A stretch of DNA of 56,408 nt, filler included, from Squatina squatina (lineage: Eukaryota), in assembly GCA_031763465.1 (NCBI GenBank). It is 3 parts of 3 records of this genome, joined end to end, with 100 filler letters (N's around TTAATTAATTAA, not from the genome) between each part and the next. Parts side by side here need not be neighbours in the genome. Positions count along the whole stretch, not along the records: positions 40,245 to 56,408 come from JARFOE010000203.1; 2 more parts are not named here. One strand, given 5' to 3'. Below the pieces are notes generated by a model. That model was not told the DNA's origin. It searched no databases and was given only the letters and a program-made list of their open reading frames with translations. The number at the start of each line of letters is the position of its first letter. Within the stretch, counting starts at the first letter, position 1. Both the position numbers and the translations under genes were made by a program. Below are positions 22,962 to 56,159 of the stretch, piece after piece.

Positions 22962-23086
22962 AGACCCTGAGCTGGGACACTCTGGGCTGGGACACCCTGA
23001 GCTGGGACACCCTGAGCTGGTACACCCTGAGCTGGGACACCCTGAGCTGTGATACCCTGAGCTGGGACACCCTGAGCTGGGACACC
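22962..23086. repeat. 15-bp tandem repeat (CCCTGAGCTGGGACA)n
   Basis: About 8 copies next to a gap. Confidence 0.92.
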
Positions 23087-23216
23087 CATTCCCCATCGCC
23101 CCTCTCCCCTCAATCCCATTCCCTGTCCTTTCCCCATTCTCCCATCGACCCTCAGTCCCATTCCTTACCTTATCACCATTCCCCCAAAATCCCATCGTGG
23201 ACACAGAGGCGAATTC

Positions 23217-23640
23217 ACCCACAGACAGACTGAGGGAGAGGGGCCTGGGGTAACCCACCCACCCACTGATAGACTGAGGGAGCAAGTCCTGGGGTAACCC
23301 ACGCACTGATAGACTGAGGGAGAGGGGCCCGGGGTATCCCACCCACCCACTGATAGACTGAGGGAGCAAGTCCTGGGGTAACCCACCCACCGACAGACTG
23401 AGGGAGAGGGGCCTAGGGTAACCCAAACACTGACAGACTGAGGGAGAGGGGCCTGGGGTAACCCATCCACCCACCCACGAACAGACCGAAGGAGAGGGGC
23501 CTGGGATAACCCAGCCACTGACAGATTGAGGGAGAGGGGTCTGGGGTAACCCACCCACTGACAGACTGAGGGAGAGGGCCCTGGGGTAACCCACTCACTG
23601 ACAGACTGAGGGAGAGGGGCCTGGGGTAACCCACCCACTG
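23217..23640. repeat. About 40-48 bp minisatellite
   Basis: Unit cactgacagactgagggagaggggcctggggtaacccac(cc)n, about 10 copies. Confidence 0.92.
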
Positions 23641-23659
23641 TGGAGACAGGGAAGGCGGT

Positions 23660-25105
23660 GTCTGGTTCTGTCCAACAGGTACGATGTACTTGCTCCCTGT
23701 GGGAATGAGGAGAAAGGCTGCGGAAGGATGGTCACAATGTTGACCAAGGCACCACGGAGCAGGAGACCGTCCAAGGGGGAGGAGCAGGACAGAAAGATTG
23801 GAGTTATAGGGAGTCAGTTAAACGTTGGGTTTGGGGAAGTTACTCGAATCTGTCAGTAGGGACAGAGTGATTGGACACTTGAACTAATAGGAAGTGCTCA
23901 GGGAGAGGCCTGGCCTTGTTAAAGGTAAGTCAGGTCTGGCTAATCTGGTTGATTATGTTGAGGGGTCACTAATGTGGTAGAGTGTCTATGGACGTTATTT
24001 ATATGGACTTCCAGCAGAAATTCAACACGGTTCCACACAAGAGACTTCACAAAAATGGGAGTGCCTGGAACTGGAGCTGGTCTTTTGACTTGAGCTGGAA
24101 ATTGGTTGGGGTGTCGGAGACAGAGAGTGGGGATAAAGGGCACGTCTCTGATTGGTGCGATGTGACTAGTGGTGTCACCAGGGATCTGTTCTGGGGCCGA
24201 AACTTTTCACCACATTTATTCCTGACTTGGATGAAGGAGTGAAGAGTTGTATCTCTCAGTTTGCAAATGATACTCAGTTAGGGGGACAGTAAATTGTGTG
24301 GATCTGAGCAGGAAGTTGCAAAGGGACTTTGTTAGGTTAAGTGTGGGCTGAACTGCGGCAGATGGAGTTCAACGTGTGAAACGCTGGACCTAAGAAAGAT
24401 CGATCAGAGTATTTTCTAAAGGTGAGAGGCTCAGAACTGAGGATGAGCAGAGAGATTTAGGGATCCAAGTACAGAAATCACTAAAGACTAGTGGACAGGT
24501 ATAAAAAATAATTACCGTCTCATGGAATGTTGGCCTTTATCTCGGCCTCCTTCTGCTCAGTAAATTTCGAGGATTCTTTCTATCTCGAGGGCTGGAATAC
24601 AGAGGGATGGGGAAGTTCTGTTCCAGTTCTATAAAGCTCTGGTTAGGCCCCATCTGAAGCACTGCGTTCAGTTCTGGGCACAGAGAGGGTGCAGCGCAGA
24701 TTCACCAGAATGATACTGGGGCTTCGAGGGTTAAATTATCAGGACAGGTTGTATAAACATGGATTGTATTCTGTGGAGTTTCAAAGATTGAAGGGTGAAC
24801 TGATCGAGGTGTTTAAAATGTTGAAAGATTTGATGGGACAGATACAGGGAAACTGCTCCCTCTGGTGGAGGAATTAAGAACACGGAGAAATAATCTTAAA
24901 ACAAGAGACCATTGAGGAGGGAAATCAGGGAACACTTCACAGGAAGGGTAGTAGAAATCTGGAACCTTCTCCCCAAAAGGCTGTGGATATTGAGAAACAA
25001 TTGGAGCTTTCAAAACTGAAATAGCATGTTGTTAGGTAAGAGGGAAATATCGAGCGATGGAGTTAAGGTACAGATCAGCCATGGTTGGTGGAACAGGCTT
25101 GAATC
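23660..25105 (+). mobile_element. Degenerate, internally deleted CR1-like LINE (ORF1 remnant, RT, 3' end)
   Basis: LSNRYDVLAPC-type ORF1 remnant, then MDVIYMDFQQKFNTVPHKRL, VTSGV and [14 protein letters not shown]. Confidence 0.85.
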
Positions 25106-25374: not shown

Positions 25375-25702
25375 CCTGACACTGAGACTCTCTCACACCC
25401 CATTACTCACTGACCGAGGGTTAATGCCCAGTACCCAGCCTGGCACTGAGACTCTCTCACACCCCATTACTCACTGACCGAGGGTTAATGCCCAGTACCC
25501 AGCCTGGCACTGAGACTCTCNNNNNNNNNNNNNNNNNNNNNNNNNNNNNNNNNNNNNNNNNNNNNNNNNNNNNNNNNNNNNNNNNNNNNNNNNNNNNNNN
25601 NNNNNNNNNNNNNNNNNNNNTCACACCCCATTACTCACTGACCGAGGGTTAATGCCCAGTACCCAGCCTGGCTCTGAGACTCTCTCACACCCTATTATTC
25701 AC
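25375..25702. repeat. 64-bp tandem repeat spanning a gap
   Basis: actgagactctctcacaccccattactcactgaccgagggttaatgcccagtacccagcctggc at 25381, 25445 and 25509; continues after the gap. Confidence 0.92.
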
Positions 25703-26087: not shown

Positions 26088-27318
26088 GGAAGAACATTAG
26101 GAACAGGAGGAGGCCATTCAGCCCCTTGGGCCTGCTCCACCTTCAATCAGATCACGGCTGATCTGTGCATCAACTCCATTTACCCGCCTTTGCTCCATAT
26201 CCTATAATAATCTCACCCAACAAAAATCATCGCTCTCAATCTTAAAAGCACCAATTCTCCCAAGCAGCTCCGTTGGTACTACCCTCACCTCTGAGTCAGA
26301 AGGAAGTGGGTTCATGTCCCACTCCAAAGACTTCAGCACAAATATCTAGGCTGACAGTCCAGTCCAGTACTGAGGAAGTGCTGCACTGTCAGAGGTGCCG
26401 TCTTTTGGATGAGATGTAAAACCGAGGCCCCATCTGCTCTCTCAAGTGGGCATAAAAAGTCCCATGGCACTATTTCGAAGAGCAGGGCAGTTATCCTCAG
26501 TGTCCTGGCCAATATGCATGTTTCAATCAACATCATTCAAAAAGAGATTATCTGGTCATTGCTGTTTGTGGGAGCTTGCTGTGTGCAAATTGGCTGCTGC
26601 GTTTCCTACATTACAAAGGTGATTACTCTTCAAAAATACTTCACTGGCTGCAAAGTGCTTTGGGACATCTGGTGGTTGTGAAAGGCGCTATAGAAATGTA
26701 AGTCTTTCTTTCAACATCCACAGCCTTTTGGGGAGAGAGTTCCAGATTTCTACGGCCCTTTGTGTGAAAATGTGTTTCCTGATTTCACTCCTAAATGGCC
26801 TTGCTCTAATTTTAAGATGATGTCCCCTCTTTCTTGATTCTCTCACCAGAGGAAATAGTTTCCCTGTTTCTCCCCTATTGAAACCTGTTCACATTATAAA
26901 CATCTCGATTAGATCACCCCTCAATCTTCTATAGTCCAGGGAATACAAGCCATGTTTATACAACCTCCCTTTAAAGCCCCAGCATCATTCTGGTCAGTCT
27001 ACACTGCACCCGCTCCAAGGCCAGTCGATCCTCCCTGAGGTGTGGGGCCCAGAACTGAAAGCACTGCTCCAGACGGGGTCTGACCAAGGCTCTGTACAAC
27101 TGAAGCATAATTCTGTCCCCTTTGTATTCCAGCCCCTCGAGATAAAGGCCAACATTCCATGAGACCGACTGGGGAAATGGACAGACACATGGCAGATAAA
27201 AGTTAACGCAGAGCAGTGTGAAGTGATACATTTTGGAAGGTAGAATGAGGAGAAGCAATTTAACCCAAATGGTCCAATTTAAAGGGTGCAGGAACAGAGA
27301 GACCTGGGGGTTTATGTA
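26088..27318 (-). mobile_element. CR1-like LINE 3' part, split by a SINE
   Basis: RT peptides MLAFISRG and LYRALVRPRLEQCFQFWAP; 3' UTR at about 26088-26260. Confidence 0.85.
26263..26712 (+). mobile_element. tRNA-derived Deu-domain SINE (SacSINE1/AmnSINE1-like)
   Basis: tRNA-like head, Deu core gaggtgccgtcttttggatgagatgtaaaaccgaggcccc, tail aaaggcgctatagaaatgtaagtctttctttc. Confidence 0.8.
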
Positions 27319-27319
27319 C

Positions 27320-28375
27320 ACATAGAAACATAGAAAATAGGAGTAGGAGTCGGACATTTGGCCATTCGAGCCTGCTCCACCATTCAATATAATCATGGCT
27401 GATCCTCTAACACAACGCCATATTCCCACTTTCTCCCCATATTCCTTGATACCGTTCATATCTAGAAATCTATCTCCTTCTTGAATATATTCAATGACTT
27501 GGCTGCCACAGCCTTCTGTGGTAGAGAAATCCACAGGTTCACCATCCTCTGACTGAACAAATTTCTCCTAATCTCAGTCTTAAATGGCCTATCCCGTATC
27601 CTGACACTGTGACCCCTGGTTCTGGACTCCCCAACCAGGGGAAACATCCTCCCTGCATCTAATCTGTCGAGTCCTGTCAGAATTTTATACATTTCAATGA
27701 GAACCCCCTCTCATTCTTCTAAACTCCAGTGAATATAGGCTTAGTCGACCCAAACTCTCATCATACGACAATCCTGCCATCCCAGGAATCTGGTGAACCT
27801 TTGCTGCACTCCCTCCATGGCAAGTCTATCCTTTCTTAGGTAAGGAGACCAAAACTGTGCACAATACTCCGGGTGTGGTCTCACCAAAGCCCTGTATAAC
27901 TGCAGTAAGACATCCTTACTCCTGTACTCAAATCCTCTTGCAATGAAGGCCAACATACCATTTGCCTTCCTAACTGCTTGCTGCACCTGCNNNNNNNNNN
28001 NNNNNNNNNNNNNNNNNNNNNNNNNNNNNNNNNNNNNNNNNNNNNNNNNNNNNNNNNNNNNNNNNNNNNNNNNNNNNNNNNNNNNNNNNNTTCAATTCCT
28101 CATACTTAATCGACTCTTGTTTCTCCAGTATTTCTCGAAGGTTTTTTCTGTCTTCTTCTGTGAAGAAATTTCCAAAGTATTCGTTCTTTTGGTCTGCCAT
28201 TTCCTTATTCGCTGTTGTAAATCTCCCTCTCTTTGTGTGCAAGGGGACAACATTTGTCATCGCCAATCTTTCTATTTTGCAAATCTGTAAAAAATTTCAC
28301 AGTCCGTTTTTATGTTTCTCACTAGTTTACTCTCGTATTATATTTACCATTTCTTTATTAATTTCTTCTCCCTCC
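27320..28375 (-). mobile_element. CR1-like LINE pieces (3' end 27320-27990; ORF2 linker 28091-28375)
   Basis: QQAVRKANGMLAFIARGFEYRSKDVLLQLYRALVRPHPEYCAQFWSP and NKEMADQKNEYFGNFFTEED; terminal (TTTCTATG)n repeats. Confidence 0.9.
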
Positions 28376-28685: not shown

Positions 28686-30500
28686 AACATAGAAACATAG
28701 ATAGAAACATAGAAAATGGAAGCAGAAGTGGGCCATTCGGCCCTTCGAGCATGCTCCACCAGGCAAGATGATCACGGCTGACCCTCCATTGCATCATCTT
28801 ATTCCAGCTTTCTCGCCAGACATGTAGTGATGTATTTAGTGTCTAAAAATCTCACTTTCTCCATCTTGGATGGATCAGTGGCCCGGCGTCTGCAGTCTTC
28901 CGTGGTAGAGAATTCCACAGGTTCGCTACCCTCTGTGTGAACAATGTTTTCCTCATCTCAGTCCTAAAGGCCTGACCCCGTAACCTGCGACTGTGTTCCC
29001 TGTTTCTAGACTCTGCAACCAGGGGAAACATCCTCCCTGCATCTAGTTGGTCGAGACCTGTCACAATTTTACATGCTTCAATCAAACCCCCTCGAATTCT
29101 TCTAAACTCTAGTGAATGCAGGCCCAGTTGTCCCAATCTCTCCTCATACGACAGTCCTGCCATCCCATTTATCAATCTGGTGAAACTTCGCTGCACTCCC
29201 TCCATGGAAAGTATATCCTTTCTCAAGTTGGGAGAGCAAAGCTGCACACATGACTCCAGGTGTGGTCTCATCAAGGCCCAATATAACTGCAGGAAGACAT
29301 CCTTACGTCTGTACTCAAATGCTCTTGCGATGAAGGAAGACTTAATATCTGCATCCCTAACTGCTTGCTGCACTTGACTGTTTGCTTTCATTGACTGGTG
29401 TACAAGAGCACCCAGGTCCCTTTGCGCAGCAACATTTTCCAAATCATCACAAATTAAATAATGCGCTGTTTTTCGGTTTTTTGCAGTGAAGTGGATAGCT
29501 TCACATTTATCCATCTTATACTGCATCTGCCATGTGTTTTCCCAACTCACTCTACTTGTCTGAATGGCCTTGAAGCCTCTGTGCATCTTCCTCACACTCA
29601 CATTCCCGCCCAGTTTTGTGTCATCAGCAAACTTGGAAAGGTTGCATTTGGGTCATCCTAATCATTTATAATAATATTGTCAATAACCAGGGCTCAAGCA
29701 CTGATCCCTGCCATACCCCACTAGTTACCGCCTGCCACGCCGAAAAAAAACATTTATTCCCACTCTCTGTTTCCTGTCTGTTGAGCAGTTCATATTCTAT
29801 GCCAGGATATTTTCCCCAATCCTGGGTGCTTTAATTTTGCATTCAAACCTCTTATGTGGGACTTTATCAAAAGCCTTCTGAAAATCCAACTGCAGCAAAT
29901 CCACTGATTCTCCTTATTTATTCTTCCAGCTGCATCCTCAAAAAATTCCAGTAGGTTTGTCAAACATGATTTCCTTTTCATAAATCCATGTTGGCCTCGT
30001 CTAACCCCGCTGAAACTTTCCAATTGTCCCGATATTAAATCCTATATAATAGACTCTAGCATTTTCACCTTGACTGATGTGAGGCTAATCGGTCTGTAAT
30101 TCCCTGCTTTCTCTCTCAATCCATTTTTAAATAGTGCGACCACATTTGCCAACCTCCAATAAGGAGGAACTGTCCTGGAATATATAGATTCTTGGAAGAT
30201 GAAAAACAATGATTCCACAATTTCCATGGCCACCTATTTTAGTATTCTGGGATGTAAATTCCAGGCCCTGGAGATTTATCAGCATTCAGTCCCATTAATA
30301 TCTCAAGCAGTTATTTTTTTTTTACGATTGCTAATTTCCTTCAATTGCTCCTTCTCAGTAGTCCCTTGCATTCCTAGTATTTCCCTGAGAAGAACCAAAG
30401 TATTTATTTAATTATTCTGCCATCTCCTTGTCCCCCAGGATAAATTCTCCTGTTGCTGTTTGCAGGGGATCTAAATATGCCTTCATTAGTCTTTTAATTT
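28686..30500 (-). mobile_element. CR1-like LINE, longest copy in the window (RT domain to 3' end, frameshifted)
   Basis: GNYRPISLTSV, QHGFMKRKSCLTNLLEFFE, 249-aa ORF 28852-29601, terminal octamer repeats. Confidence 0.92.
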
Positions 30501-32469
30501 TTAATTAGTTGTACAGGGAAACCTCGCCTGTACATTCTTCAAGGTCGTGACACACTTCCTAAATTATAGTGCCCAGAATTGCACTCAATAATCGAGCTTT
30601 GCCCTCGCCAGCGATTTGCCAATGTTTGGTGTGACTTCCTTATTATTGTACTAAATGCACCTGTTTACACAGTTAATATCTCTTTAACTTTCTTAACTGC
30701 CTTTTATGATAAGTTATAGCAGGTACAGGGGCAGAACCAAATATCACCCATTATTGATAGCTTCAGAGATGTTAGGTGGAATATTTCATATCATCTTGTG
30801 TTTGAAAATAAATATAATTACAGTTTATTAATAATTAAATATATGGAGGATCAATACGCTATTACATCTAAAAAGTTTTTTTGATCAAAGATTTATTGAC
30901 GTATTTGATTGAAAGTGCATTTAAAGGATTGTATTTAAACACATTCTGTGTTCACATACAATGCACTTGCTCTCAGTGGTTAAGTTTCTCTTTGTACCAG
31001 CGGAATCGCTGCTGGGTTGAAACCACAGGTTTCCGCTGTCACCTTTAGCCTGAAAATGTTTAGTTCTTCACTTATATCTGTTCATTTTTTGTTCCTCCTT
31101 CACTGCAGATGACACCCGCATCGTTATATATCTGACAATAGTAACATGTTTGCAAAAGGACCGGTGTCCGGTAAATTAAAACAAAATTCTTTTCCAATTA
31201 TTTAGAGTTTATATCCTCCTTCATTTCTCATTTATTGTTATTAAACGCTATTTTTTTAATTTCATGTTGATTAGACCCATATTGTGCTCTTTGTGTCAGG
31301 CAGATATCTGCCTCGAAAAGTACCGTTTTCCAGAGATCTCTTCAGTTCTATATATGTTGCCGCTACTTCTGTACTCACTATGTGAGAGCTGACACAGCAC
31401 TGAGATATATCGATTTTCACAGTGGGAGGAGACCGATAATGCGCAATTCTGCATTAACCTCTTAATCTCAAAACACAATCCATTCAGTAAAGGAGCTGCT
31501 AGACTGACATTGTAATTCTGTTTGGTGGTGTAGCCACAGGTGGAGATCTGCAAACAGACTTACTGATCGCAGCCACACTTCATAAAGCTGCAGTCATTTG
31601 ACTTTTAGTGACGTTTTCACTCAGTCACAAAATGGATCTTTTAATTTTTCACGTTTTTTGCTGTCATTTGTTCCAAGGGCACATTTTTGTAATTGCTGTA
31701 GATTATTGAAGTTATCAACTATTGACAGACCATTAGAATTTATTCAGTTCTGGTAGTTGAATCCATAAGAAAGGGACATGAAGTTTAAAATTGTGCTGCA
31801 TAATTTGGGTGTAACCAGGAAGGCAATTCTCACACAAAGTGCAATTCTGGAAATCTCTGTATGTAGTGTATACTTACATTATGTAGACAAGTTCCAGAGT
31901 GGGAGCTGAACCGAAAGTGGCAGGATTGTCAATAACTCAGTCACACTGAGAATTGTCTATAAACACTACATGCAAGTCGGTCTGAATATTCATCCTTTAA
32001 TGCGGTTGGAGTTCGAATAACTGTTTCTCATTTTCTCTTTTTAGTGATATTTGGGACTCAGGGTAACATCACTCAAGGTTAGTGCCTAGAGTTTCCATAA
32101 AATAATGATACTCAGCAAATAATGTTAAAGCTGCTAAGTAATTTATGTTGTGTTTAAGTAAATTAAGTGGAAAGCTTGATCCAATTATGATGTGTCATTT
32201 GATAAATTCAAAATAGTTTCTACGAGATATGTCCATGTTGTCTGTCAGTTCGGTCAGAAAGTGAAGCAAAACTTACTAAATGAAGGGGGGACTGACTTGA
32301 TTCAATTTAAGTAAAATAACTGGTGATGGAGAAACTGATGAGATGAACGATAGCCAAAAGGAGGGAGTGGGGGAACAGCCAGACACTGTGACCACTATTG
32401 GAAACACAACGAAGCTAGAAAGAGGGCTAAGGCCCTTCAGGGAGATTTTAGGGAGTTAGGAAAGAGGTA

Positions 32470-32973
32470 AACATAGAACCATAGAAAATCGGTGCAGGAG
32501 AAGGCCATTCGGCCCTTCGAGCCTGCACTGCCATTCAAAACGATCATGGCTGATCTTTCAACTTAGTACCCCGTACATGCTTTCTCTCCCTACCCCCTGA
32601 TCCCTTTAGCCGTAAGGGCCACATCTATTTCCCGTTTGAATGTAGGCAATGAACTGGCCTCAACAGCTTCCTGTGGTAGAGCGTTCCACAGGTTGACCAC
32701 TCTCTGGGTGAAAACGTTTTTCCTCACCTCTGTCCCAAATGGCTTCCTTCTTATCCTCAAACTGTGTACCCTGGTTCTGGACTTCCCCAACATCGGGAAC
32801 ATTCTTCCCGAATTCAGCCTCTCCAATCCATTAAGAATGTTGTAAGTTTCTATAAGATCCTCTCTCATTCTTCTAAATTCCAGTGAATATAAGCCCAGTC
32901 GATCTAATCTTTCTTCATAAGTCAGACCTGCCATCCCGGGAATCAATCTTGTAAACCTTCGCTGCACTCCCTC
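32470..32973 (-). mobile_element. CR1-like LINE 3' end
   Basis: EGVQRRFTRLIPGMAGLTYEERLDRLGLYSLEFRRMR. Confidence 0.9.
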
Positions 32974-34770: not shown

Positions 34771-35450
34771 AACTTTCAGGGGACTCTCCATTCTTGCATG
34801 GAAAATAGATGGAGAATTATGAAAGCCTTGGGGCAAGCACATCCAAGTGTAACATTGGCCTTCAAAATTCAACACAAACTTGTTTTGATCTTCACTGGCT
34901 ACCAGAATACTCCAGAAACCATTAGCGATGTCTAGGGTATAGTAGAACCTTACCTGAGAAGGAAGATTAGCCAAAAGTATAGGAACTTCACAGACAATCA
35001 GGGTTTGTTTAGTTGTGGCTTTATTTAAGGCTCGATAGTCGATGGTTAGTCGCCATGAGCCGTCTGGCCAAGTTGGAGAATTGGTCGTAAAGGCTCCTGT
35101 GCACAAGCCACTTTGCTCGCAAAGGGACTCCAGAACCTCTCAGAGATAGGGAAGGCTCTCACTGGGAATAGGATGTTGTTTCAGGGACCTATTGGCTGGA
35201 CAATTTGATACTTTCTTCTCCTGTCATTCATCCACAATTGTGTTTGGATGTGGTGAAAGCGGAGGAATGCTGTCATATCAGGGTGGTGACTTGTGAGTCA
35301 GGGTGAATTGGAAGCTGGTACTGGCTAGCTTTCTTAACCGCAAACACCAAGTGTGCATCTAATACCTCGATCCATTCACGACCTCCCATGCCAAACCAAA
35401 TATTGCTCTGTGGATAATCTATAATCAGTCCTGAACATTTTAACGCATCA
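34771..35450 (-). pseudogene. Endogenous retrovirus-like pro-pol fragment (protease C-terminus and RT N-half)
   Basis: DALKCSGLIID...SKHNCG... then NSPTWPDGSWRLTIDYRALNK...YYTLDIANGFWSI...FEGQCYTWMCLPQGFHNSPSIFH. LPQGF.NSP is retroviral-type rather than the Gypsy MPFGL motif. Stops and frameshifts present. Confidence 0.85.
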
Positions 35451-38744: not shown

Positions 38745-39409
38745 CAATAAGGAGAAACTGTTTCCACTGGCAGGAGGGTCGATACCGAGAAAGCACAGAT
38801 TTTAAGGCAATGGGCAAAAGAACCAAGAGGGAGTCAAGGAGAATTTTTTTAATGTAGCAAGTTACGATGATCTGGAACACACTGCCTGAAAGGGCGGTGG
38901 AAGCAGGTTCAATAGTAATTTCCAAAAGGGAATTAGATAAATACTCGGAAAGGAAACAGTAGCAGGCCGATGGGGAAAGAGTTGGACTAATCGGATCGTT
39001 CTTTCAAAGAGCCGGCACATGCTTGGTGAGCCGAAAGGCCTTCTTCTGTGCTGTAAAAATATATTGTGCTTTGTGGAGAAGTGATATCCTCATAGAAGCA
39101 ACTCCTCTTGTACTCCGGATTCTCAATTATCCATTCGAGGAGACCCTACCTGTGTATAATGGTAATTGGTGGATGATTGAGAGTCCTACTTTTTCGGGGT
39201 GGCAGGCGGTGACTAGTGGAGTGCTGCAGGGATCAGTGCTTGGGCCCCAGCTATGCACAATATATATAAATGACGTGGATGAGGAAACCAAATACAACAT
39301 TTCCAAGTTTGCTGATGACACAAAACTGGGCAGGAATGTGAGCTGTGAGGAGGATGCAAAGAGGCTTCAAGGCGATTTAGACAAGTTGAGTGAGTGGGCA
39401 AACACATGG
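38745..39409 (+). mobile_element. CR1-like fragments (3' end 38745-39060; RT core 39185-39409)
   Basis: FSGWQAVTSGVLQGSVLGPQLCTIYINDVDE...SKFADDTKLG. Confidence 0.88.
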
Positions 39410-51854: not shown

Positions 51855-51931
51855 GTTAGTAGCAAAGACGAAGATTTTTTGGATCTTTCAGTTGACGTAG
51901 AACAAAACACTTCAATAACTCATTGTTTAAG
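51855..51931 (+). CDS. USP46/USP12-family deubiquitinase exon, 77 nt (isolated)
   Basis: tttttctccacag|[26 protein letters not shown]|gtaggt. Matches the remembered USP46 sequence; USP12 differs only at the first residue. Confidence 0.88.
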
Positions 51932-53059: not shown

Positions 53060-53159
53060 NNNNNNNNNNNNNNNNNNNNNNNNNNNNNNNNNNNNNNNNN
53101 NNNNNNNNNNNNNNNNNNNNNNNNNNNNNNNNNNNNNNNNNNNNNNNNNNNNNNNNNNN

Positions 53160-53960
53160 TGATTCAAGTCGTACCAGACTCAACACCCATTAAAACATTA
53201 TATAGAGTAGAAAATATTGGGGTGATCAGGGGAGATTATTATATAAAGTATTACAACATACCACCATATGCAGTAGAGACAGGGGATATTATCGTAGGTA
53301 CTACGTTAGAGAGATGTAGTATAAAAGCCTCTTCAGTTGTATGTCCACATCCAATATACGAGACAGAGGAATCAAAATGTGGATTTTATGCAACAGCCAA
53401 CTGTACAATGGAAGCTATATGGGCTATACTGGAGCCCACTCACGTGGCATATCTGGGTAAAGGAAGATATTGCATCACCTCACCACAACGGGAAGATCAA
53501 TGTGGGCATAATCAACCCTGCCCCATAGCTCGTCCCAGTGTGCCTACACCCACAGACATCAGTAAGGGTGGGAAAGGTAGAACTGATGGAGATATACAAG
53601 AGAGACACAGTTAACATGCAGGTGGAGGACAGCATGAAAGAAAATCTGACTCAGTTTCTGAGCCAGTTCTCCTATGTAATTCCGTTGCTACCTGAACATC
53701 TCTCAGACATTAGCGAGGAGGCCCAGCGAATGCATAGAACTTATTACATATTAGGCTCGGTTGCAACAGGTTCGGTTGCTGACAAACGACATCGAACGGA
53801 TAGATGACGCCACATGGTGGGAAGATTTATGGAATTGGGGTTTGAATATCCAAGTTCACCCATGGATCTGGATCTTTTCCCACGTTTTAGTTATTACCCA
53901 GTTGATAGTACTGTTTTACTTAGCATACTTGGTTCACCGTGTCAAGAGGACACACACAGG
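53160..53960 (+). pseudogene. Endogenous viral envelope/fusion glycoprotein, C-terminal half, two frameshifts (lokiretrovirus-like env)
   Basis: Joining ORFs 52916-53614 (post-gap part), 53538-53807 and 53761-54213 gives an 8-Cys region, a heptad-like helix, a Trp-rich WWEDLWNW stretch and a hydrophobic TM segment WIWIFSHVLVITQLIVLFYLAYLV. No introns. Confidence 0.75.
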
Positions 53961-54182
53961 AGAGCAGCAAAAGGGGGGTTCCAATAGCACTGGAAATAAG
54001 CAAGGGGGACAGGTTTTTTCTTGTATTTTTATTGCAGGACCATTCCATACCAATGACACAGATGGTATAGCCCAATACCCCTGTAACCCTAAGCTCGATA
54101 CCTGGCCAGTATCAGCAGCGGCAGAGCGTAACGGAAGGGGCAATCCCATTTTCGTTGGCCACCTTGGGCTCGGCCAAGGGTC

Positions 54183-54620
54183 AAAAGTGGGGGATTGTTG
54201 GGGTAGAAATTAATTTAGTATGTTTTATATCAAGCATAGCTCTGGGAAAGCAACCAGGCAAGTAGGGTTAATGAGACAACGGATTTAATGCTGTGAGAGC
54301 AGAAAACACATACTTGCCAGCTTACTGAGGCTAGGGTGAAGGGCAGCAAATGTTCTATGTTGTTCGAAGCTAACTTAAGATTAGTGTGGTTGTTATGACA
54401 CTGTGGAGTCATGAAGAGAAGAGTTGTGTCTTGGGCACCATTTGGTATCAAGCTGCTATGTGGGACTCGAGGTGGGGAGTCATCAATAAGAAAAGCAAGA
54501 CAAGCCTCAGGGTGAGAAGTCACATCTCACCAGTAAAGATGACAAGAACCAAGGGGAAAAGTATTGACATCAAACCAGGGTGGAATGTGAGTCTGTTTAC
54601 CCTTAGATTGTAAAGTGACA
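54183..54620 (+). mobile_element. Polypurine tract and putative 3' LTR (end not defined)
   Basis: AAAAGTGGGGGAT is immediately followed by TGTTG at 54196, about 240 bp after the TM-coding segment. Unique sequence runs until a CR1 tail remnant at about 54620. Confidence 0.55.
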
Positions 54621-56159
54621 TAGAAACATCGAAGATAGGAGCAGGAGTGGGAGTTTTATCATTCCCAAGTTGGTATCACAAGAATATATGGAAGATTGAT
54701 GGGCAGGGATAGGTTCACAATGCAGCAAATCAAAGGGACCATTGCCTTGAAGGATTTACAGAGCAATGTAGCAAAACCAATTTCTTTATTCTTTATTCCC
54801 TCTTAATTAACCATTGAAAATAGCTCAATATATTTTCAGTACTTATGCCACAACTTAAACCCCTTGCGTATCAATTACAATGAGCCTACTGATAATTGAT
54901 ATTTGCCATAATAGCAAGCAACCAAATAGTATACAAAAAAGGTTGTTGCAAAATAGAATGTGACAACCCTGGTGTATTTGGGGCAGGGCCTAAATCCTAA
55001 TGCTGTAGACTAATTGTCACTTGCCACATTTAAATTTTATTCAACCTGGCCAACTCCTTTTTAAAACAATGTTTAAACATGTCCATAGTATTTATAGTCT
55101 TTCTGTTTGTGCTGTCAATCACAAACTGTAATTCGATGATATTGTTGGAAGTATAGGGGAGAGTTTCAGAAAGGCATTTTCAGCATACCATTATAAGTAC
55201 TGTTAAAAATTAATTTCCCTAGGAACCCCCCCCCCCATGCTGTGCATCATTCCTTGCTGGGAGAACAGGCAGGTGACCTGCTCCCAGGCTGCACCATCGT
55301 CACACTGAAAGCAGCAGCAGAGGGGTGTGCAAGAATGGATAGGGGTGATTCATCCTCTTTATTCTTTTTTTTTACCTTTTTCTATGGAAAACTGCTTGAC
55401 ACTTCTGTGCAATGGCATGGCCAAAACTGATGAGAACTGTGGCACCCAGACCTCCATCTCACCATTCAGTGACANNNNNNNNNNNNNNNNNNNNNNNNNN
55501 NNNNNNNNNNNNNNNNNNNNNNNNNNNNNNNNNNNNNNNNNNNNNNNNNNNNNNNNNNNNNNNNNNNNNNNNNNTGTCTCAGGGATACCTCTGGGAGCTC
55601 ACTCCAATTTCCTGCATCTGTACACTGATCATAGGATACCTCCATCCCGTTCAGTCACGGTGAATGCTGGAACAGACAAGGATTAAAACCCAAACAACAG
55701 TTAGGTCAAGGTTGGAAGCAGAACCAGTAGAAATGTCAATTACAATGGACAGGGCAGAGATACTATTTTAATACTTTATTGAAGCCTGATTATTAATTAC
55801 TAATTATTAATTACAACAATGAGCATTGACCAGCTAGTGTTACTGATTAAGAATTAAAACTAAGATCTGCAAAATAATGAATCTATTATATATTAAATTC
55901 ACTATGCAGGGCACACATTTCATTGGAAACTTTCATGTGAATCTTGCTCCCATTGCAAAACTCACTATAATATCTGTTAGGCCTTTGGGCTGTGATACAA
56001 ATTTTCAATGTAAGGGGGTCACATCTTGCCTTTCACAGATTCACCTACTTTGTTGTTCCACGCAATAGATGTGTTTGTGTTGGCAAGACTTGTTTTAATA
56101 GAAAATGTTTTAGCTAATCATCCTTGCCCCATCCTAGTACACCTCTGTGGCATCCAGGA

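Follow-up and report, generated by a model that had tools for sequence, protein, structure and literature searches.

A probable decayed retroviral 3' end with a fusion-protein-like envelope remnant in the genome of Squatina squatina

Background

Which kind of element left the envelope (env) remnant that opens at position 53160 of the window, meaning here the whole 56,408-nucleotide stretch of Squatina squatina DNA (assembly GCA_031763465.1) that was analysed? The initial annotation read it as the 3' end of a lokiretrovirus (Loki), with an env resembling the paramyxo- and pneumovirus fusion protein (F), a polypurine tract (PPT) and a long terminal repeat (LTR), and added that a chondrichthyan copy could extend the known host range. 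Lokiretroviruses are delimited by reverse transcriptase (RT) phylogeny (PMC7947760), and are recognized by an RT that is sister to all other retroviruses, a PF00523-like Env, a dual RNase H, a CGIN1-like integrase and, optionally, an smc gene. Their Env is F-like and matches Pfam F0 (PF00523) at E 2.2e-7 (PMC7947760). Four scenarios for the origin of retroviral Env were left open in the same paper, because F-like Env seemed confined to lokiretroviruses; foamy-virus Env was later shown to be F-like (PMC11468914). The commonest endogenous retroviruses (ERVs) in sharks are of class III (PMC11089739, PMC6001957). 

Locus and reading frames

The source contig carrying the env fragment opens at 53160, straight after a 100-N assembly gap (Table 1). 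Because the gap directly precedes it, the 5' part of the fragment is hidden. A USP12/USP46 exon, the sole USP exon that a motif scan of the window returned, is found 1.2 kb upstream of the fragment and shares its strand. If scaffold order holds across the gap, the fragment is probably located in the intron that follows this exon. The window contains 38 N-runs, most of 100 bases, and thus represents a fragmented scaffold in which order and distance across gaps are uncertain.

Table 1. Coordinates of features in the window
Feature	Position	Strand	Remarks
Tandem arrays	22964-23678 and 25393-25702		units about 15, 40 and 64 nt
Degraded retroviral pro/RT piece	34771-about 35400	-	RVT_1 E 3.8e-13; LPQG-type motif
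Second RT piece	38963-39409	+	RVT_1 E 2.3e-6
USP12/USP46 exon	51855-51931	+	canonical splice sites; 25/25 residues identical
100-N assembly gap	53060-53159	.	conceals all upstream, with any further env, pol, gag and 5' LTR
env piece 1	53162-53539	+	F-like domain I, distal half; Ig-like domain II, its beginning
env piece 2	53541-53753	+	next frame; rest of domain II, linker, start of heptad-B-like helix
env piece 3	53764-53967	+	third frame; end of heptad-B-like helix, Trp-rich juxtamembrane motif, transmembrane segment (TM), start of cytoplasmic tail
PPT candidate	54183-54194	+	11/12 purines; one base before TG at 54196
Candidate 3' LTR, probably U3 part	54196-54775	+	putative LTR, from its position
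35-bp dispersed-repeat-end piece	54618-54652	+	blastn 88.6% to 27320-27354, E 1.4e-6; repeat family D8

The peptides quoted in the initial annotation were found in three successive forward frames, collinear with the shark protein P0002, and its description of a twice-frameshifted env frame holds. The shifts fall near 53540 and near 53760, there are no stop codons within the matched parts of the three pieces, and the frame of piece 3 is open as far as 54210. Piece 1 contains six conserved cysteines, one private cysteine, an NCT sequon and a YxGxGxYC motif at 53450-53473, its domain assignment in Table 1 being drawn from the predicted model of the relative P0006. Piece 2 contains one conserved cysteine and an NLT sequon, so that both of the sequons first noted were found. 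Eight cysteines had been counted, seven of which are indeed conserved in the family; the remaining one, in 'DQC', is shared by none of 11 relatives, six of which have tyrosine there. The proposed TM is also present, as a hydropathic 19-mer in piece 3 (53866-53922, mean hydropathy 2.16). Between the YxGxG motif and the Trp pair, the spacing differs by at most 3 codons from that of four relatives, and therefore no large part is missing. Because the frame changes twice ahead of the TM, no anchored Env can be made from the window copy, which is dead as a fusogen.

Elsewhere in the window, the degraded pro/RT piece at 34771 gave foamy Pol as its best match among PDB chains (E 8e-16, versus 6e-9 for Ty3 and 5e-5 for MLV). 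This piece (34771-35139) was considered as the pol of the env and rejected, being on the opposite strand, 18 kb off and on another contig. Many dispersed repeat copies are also found, for example at 27318-27989, 28697-29376 and 32469-32946; together with the second RT piece they are presumably LINE and SINE relics.

Relatives of the env remnant

A phmmer search with env piece 1 against 1,835,955,588 representatives returned 11 proteins at the cut-off of E<=0.001, the best being P0001 of Heterodontus francisci (E 1.2e-27, 50% identity). With tblastn, P0002 of Heptranchias perlo matches all three env pieces in order (sum E 2.5e-45), at 43% identity for 53240-53482, 34% for 53541-53753 and 49% for 53764-53967; as a control, the reversed P0002 reached a best E of 3.4 against the window. 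Piece 2 corresponds to residues 105-175 of P0002 and is 31% identical to P0004, and piece 3 is 41% identical to P0001. Matches in the window were obtained by tblastn for 10 of the 11 phmmer relatives, all inside 53168-53967. The eleventh, P0010, is a tandem-repeat protein without a tblastn match in the window, and was left out of all alignments. The env remnant is real. All four of the named sequence relatives are shark proteins, in line with the shark-type host first proposed, and the env family occurs in at least four shark genera. In a tree of 12 rows, from which P0013 was omitted as too short, the window piece groups with the Heterodontus protein with support of only 82/85. A word-index protein search with env piece 1 against longer proteins gave none among 159 candidates, and PDB sequence searches with env piece 1 and with the family alignment gave nothing under E 0.19.

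Three relatives are full-length (P0003, P0011 and P0012, 673-754 aa). Their RxKR motifs end at residues 239, 274 and 290 respectively, and are followed by long helices and a Cys-rich block, and in P0011 and P0012 by a TM too. Two of them, P0011 of Chiloscyllium punctatum (739 aa) and P0012 of Scyliorhinus torazame (754 aa), run uninterrupted and share 630 of 739 residues (85%) and 19 of 19 cysteines, while only 28% identical to the window piece. Their conservation between two shark orders suggests that they represent a candidate co-opted env gene; a recent cross-species virus could also account for the likeness.

Polypurine tract and candidate LTR

The purine tract and adjoining TG that had been described downstream of env are in place (Table 1). 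The PPT-like pattern has six matches at four sites in the whole window, so only its place after env lends this one credibility as a PPT. An intronless env C-terminal part with a TM, followed by a PPT and TG, is the arrangement seen at the 3' end of a provirus, which upholds the provirus-like reading of the locus.

The LTR as first delimited, 54196-54620, fared less well. Neither AATAAA nor ATTAAA occurs in the candidate LTR, blastn found no second copy of 53160-55475 in the window, and the 'CA' taken as the LTR end is the start of the 35-bp piece, which we take to be a motif of the shark LINE 3'-tail type. Position 54620 was accordingly rejected as a proven LTR end, the 'CA' belonging to a dispersed-repeat piece and the G-rich composition running past it. 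The G-rich block extends to about 54775 (log-likelihood gain 15.6, versus at most 9.9 in 200 shuffles, these scanned at a coarser step). A splice-acceptor-like pyrimidine tract ending in CAG is located between the TM and the PPT, at 54014-54037 on the forward strand. In SnRV, spliced accessory ORFs follow env (PMC12193657).

Structural class of the envelope

A conventional retroviral TM subunit would have spoken against the initial annotation, and the three window frames and 13 proteins were checked for its marks. CX6CC was found in none of the three frames and none of the 13 proteins, and the immunosuppressive domain (ISD) is likewise absent, with an LQNR-like word in one of the 13 proteins, within its N-terminal part. 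The hallmarks of a gamma-type retroviral Env are therefore missing. Pfam gave a weak match of PF00523 to env piece 1 (E 0.18, profile positions 286-349; E 0.11 in a second search), far from the value reported for Loki Env, and this piece is the only one of the 13 alignment members to match, the 12 relatives giving no hit. No fusion-protein family was returned by Pfam for 11 relatives.

Structure prediction was carried out on P0006, a relative about 32% identical to env piece 1 (pLDDT 66.7). All 44 PDB matches listed for this model are foamy-virus Env or paramyxo/pneumovirus F, at low TM-scores of 0.20-0.30, and the sole one at E<=0.001 is the best, foamy Env 8rm1 (E 6.3e-4). By VIA, model residues 46-156 resemble residues 22-371 of hPIV3 F (Z 5.1, rmsd 3.8, 96 aligned) and residues 157-211 resemble residues 368-428 of hMPV F (Z 4.5, rmsd 2.8, 54 aligned), so that the segments follow the F domain order, domain I and then domain II; a wide VIA search also brought up generic Ig/FN3 domains, scoring around Z 5 and level with the F and foamy chains. 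A domain I beta-sheet followed by an Ig-like domain II is predicted on the P0006 model, and heptad B (HRB) and the TM are read from the sequence. The model is 8-15% identical to paramyxo/pneumovirus F, which, unlike the shark env, comes from negative-strand RNA viruses, in which PPT and LTR are absent. In a viral fold library, the five matches of the P0006 model at E<=0.001 were four arthropod-virus glycoproteins and the Env of walleye epidermal hyperplasia virus 1 (WEHV-1); lispivirus-type glycoproteins and baculovirus F (E 5e-3) also rank. No Loki, SnRV or Ovex1 Env was identifiable among the matches listed in either fold library. Taken at these modest scores, the predicted fold gives moderate support for placing the env in the F-like structural class of paramyxo/pneumovirus F and foamy Env, as was first suggested for its architecture.

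Walleye epsilonretrovirus Envs stand among the F-like matches, WEHV-1 at E 9e-4 and WDSV at E 1.3e-3, the latter with the full-length P0011 model, which is poor (pLDDT 38.5) and whose viral fold search serves as a lead only. These model-based matches hint that the walleye epsilonretrovirus Envs may themselves be F-like.

Alternative origins

The best placed of the alternatives, and still an unlikely one, is a foamy-like (spuma, clade Tu) shark ERV with a divergent fish/shark foamy Env. Such ERVs, which have been reported in sharks (PMC10699275), are recognized by a spuma-clade RT, a long Env with a leader peptide and accessory genes before the 3' LTR. Foamy Env (8rm1/8rm0; PMC11468914) has the same order of domain I, Ig-like domain II, HRB and TM as the shark env and is the top Foldseek match of the P0006 model, feline foamy Env is third for the poor P0011 model, and the separate RT piece in the window has foamy Pol as its nearest PDB chain (E 8e-16). 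However, identity between foamy Env and the P0006 model is 11-14%, and foamy Env differs in that it carries an inserted RBD of large size, has a second TM in its leader and, in the feline virus, measures about 980 aa, versus 673-754 aa for the full-length shark relatives. The Pfam foamy Env family is matched by none of the 13 members. Foamy accessory genes (tas; PMC12193657) sit between env and the LTR, whereas TM and PPT are only about 260 nt apart in the window, which leaves scant room for them. As the PDB matches include no SnRV- or Ovex1-type chain, the top rank of foamy Env may partly be a library effect.

A true lokiretrovirus, which would be the first from a chondrichthyan and would have an Env that is divergent or was swapped in, is rather improbable. 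In its favor, Loki Env is an F-like class I fusogen with an RxKR site, coiled coil and TM (PMC7947760), and the weak PF00523 match falls in the right region. The Env comparison was made by eye and is unscored, against 23 published Loki Envs (supplement of PMC7947760), 22 of which span the region. These 22 have the same four domain-I cysteines, with similar flanks, as the shark env family, and over the opening half of the Cys-rich block (N-x-G, PP, CP and CG motifs) the shark env is at least as close to Loki Env as to Ovex1. However, all 22 show W-L and no cysteine where the shark family has Y-C, WW-[ED] before the TM is found in no Loki Env whose pre-TM part was compared, and Loki cleavage sites are typically near residue 110-130 versus 239-290 in the three long shark relatives. 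Cysteine spacing is 8/11/7/22 in the window versus 9/13/10, with no fifth cysteine, in Loki-Bsp. Thus the short SU, domain II without conserved cysteines and lack of a WW juxtamembrane motif that mark Loki-family Env by eye are not traits of the shark env, which on sequence fails a family-level match to Loki Env, yet is a distant homologue. The two published Loki Pol sequences compared have a PFG-type RT motif, versus the LPQG type in Retroviridae proper.

The lack of chondrichthyans from the host range given in the initial annotation is confirmed by the defining paper, in which none of the six chondrichthyan genomes screened was positive (PMC7947760). Six is a small sample; it did include Scyliorhinus torazame, the species that encodes P0012. 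As chondrichthyans were negative there, a Loki copy would extend the range; the present sequence does not demonstrate one. Since RT defines the group, no pol adjoins the env, none of the six chondrichthyans was positive and the Env motifs differ, the label 'lokiretrovirus' is unsupported. The F-like fold does not favor it in particular, because this fold is not specific to Loki: foamy Env has it, and WEHV Env, lispivirus-type glycoproteins and baculovirus F also rank. 

Still less probable is an env-carrying Ty3/gypsy (errantivirus-like) element, defined by a Metaviridae pol with a baculovirus-F-like env, or a captured Mononegavirales F gene beside an unrelated repeat. This would fit the viral fold search, where baculovirus F and lispivirus-type glycoproteins stand high, as well as the ESM Atlas neighbor of env piece 1, an arthropod Monjiviricetes-fusion cluster (0.85, a lead only). 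However, the named sequence relatives are all from sharks (four of four), the PPT and TG follow env at the retroviral position, Baculo_F and Gypsy Pfam families are matched by none of the 13 members, and in PMC13524379 no intact homologues of invertebrate errantiviruses were found in vertebrates. A pseudogenized copy of a co-opted host gene orthologous to P0011/P0012, rather than a provirus end, would fit the intact relative conserved in two shark orders (630 of 739 residues), and is very improbable: the window piece shares only 28% identity with P0011/P0012, has a PPT/LTR-like flank, and is placed apart from them in the tree, which largely refutes this reading.

Comparison with Ovex1 and related envelopes

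The reading that we favor, by somewhat better than even chances, is a decayed ERV 3' end whose F-like Env belongs to a family distinct from that of Loki and nearest, by eye, to the Env of Ovex1, TERV and GGLTR11. Bird Ovex1 ORF3 is 873-874 aa long (874 in zebra finch), lacks ISD and CX6CC, and is related to TERV and GGLTR11; in the paper describing it, its identity as an Env was left uncertain and it was not called F-like (PMC2717909). Like the shark env, the Ovex1 ORF3/TERV/GGLTR11 Env has by eye a five-Cys block of the same total span ending in Y-x-G-K-G, cysteines in domain II, a heptad helix, and WW-E plus HP before the TM. Ovex1-type Env and P0011/P0012 also agree by eye in that the fusion peptide opens with RR-DL and heptad A is followed by a helix that bears a Cys. 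Hand-counted cysteine spacing in chicken Ovex1 ORF3 is 9/10/7/22, close to the window's 8/11/7/22, and both lack CX6CC and ISD. The ESM Atlas places P0011 beside a chordate cluster of 874 aa (score 0.82), which serves as a lead only. Unlike the shark env, Ovex1 ORF3 is longer, is richer in domain II cysteines, lacks a signal peptide and remains intact in birds. By this unscored by-eye match, then, the shark env family appears nearest to the bird Ovex1 ORF3/TERV/GGLTR11 Env.

As far as we infer its RT, the carrier likely came from the orthoretrovirus side, either as a class III/SnRV-like or as a class I lineage. The pol of Ovex1 resembles the RTs of foamy viruses, walleye virus and SnRV, whereas GGLTR11 is a class I ERV (PMC2717909); because these differ, Ovex1-type Env would not be tied to one RT clade. 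Against an Ovex1-like reading, no pol adjoins the env fragment, and CmiERV lineage I, a complete class III-like, SnRV-like ERV of the elephant shark whose RT resembles the window RT piece at 34771-35139 by eye, encodes an Env that by eye is gamma-type, with ISD and CX6CC, unlike the F-like shark env (PMC4422223).

A mechanism for the parent protein can be proposed from the full-length relatives and from F and foamy structures (PMC11468914). The parent Env would have been a type I membrane trimer cut at the RxKR furin site, with domains I and II forming a disulfide-linked head. The heptad-A helix would carry the fusion peptide that follows the cut into the target membrane, and the heptad-B helix ahead of the Trp-rich segment and TM would then zip back to form a six-helix bundle, leading to membrane fusion. 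The PPT would have primed plus-strand DNA synthesis at the 3' LTR.

Conclusions

Wang and Han have reportedly surveyed retroviral gene co-option in vertebrates. We found no report of a shark Loki or of this Env family in a literature search that covered subscription papers thinly, and the supplements of PMC12813294 and of bioRxiv 2021.11.23.469661 and 2026.05.06.723177 could list such genes. In these three sources, shark and anamniote env screens were queried with gamma/beta-type Env or syncytin, so env genes of the F-like kind may have been counted too low.

Taken by itself the locus is a dead fragment; what gives it weight is the env family. We tentatively propose, at a little under even chances, that this family represents a third F-like Env lineage of vertebrate retroviruses beside those of Loki and foamy viruses, shark-wide and continuous with Ovex1/TERV, perhaps with the walleye epsilonretrovirus Envs as well, that F-like Env is the ancestral retroviral Env, and that P0011/P0012 were co-opted. 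If this is true, F-like Env would occur on both sides of the split between Loki and retroviruses as well as inside Orthoretrovirinae-side lineages, and gamma- and beta-type Env would be later replacements of it. A shark ERV with an F-like Env that is neither Loki nor foamy would make the Env-origin scenarios testable, by setting Env type against RT clade. With 85% identity between two shark orders, the intact pair P0011/P0012 is a candidate for an envelope co-opted in ancient times; if the proposal is true, this happened before the carpet-shark/ground-shark split, and syncytin-based screens, with their demand for ISD and CX6CC, would have missed the gene.
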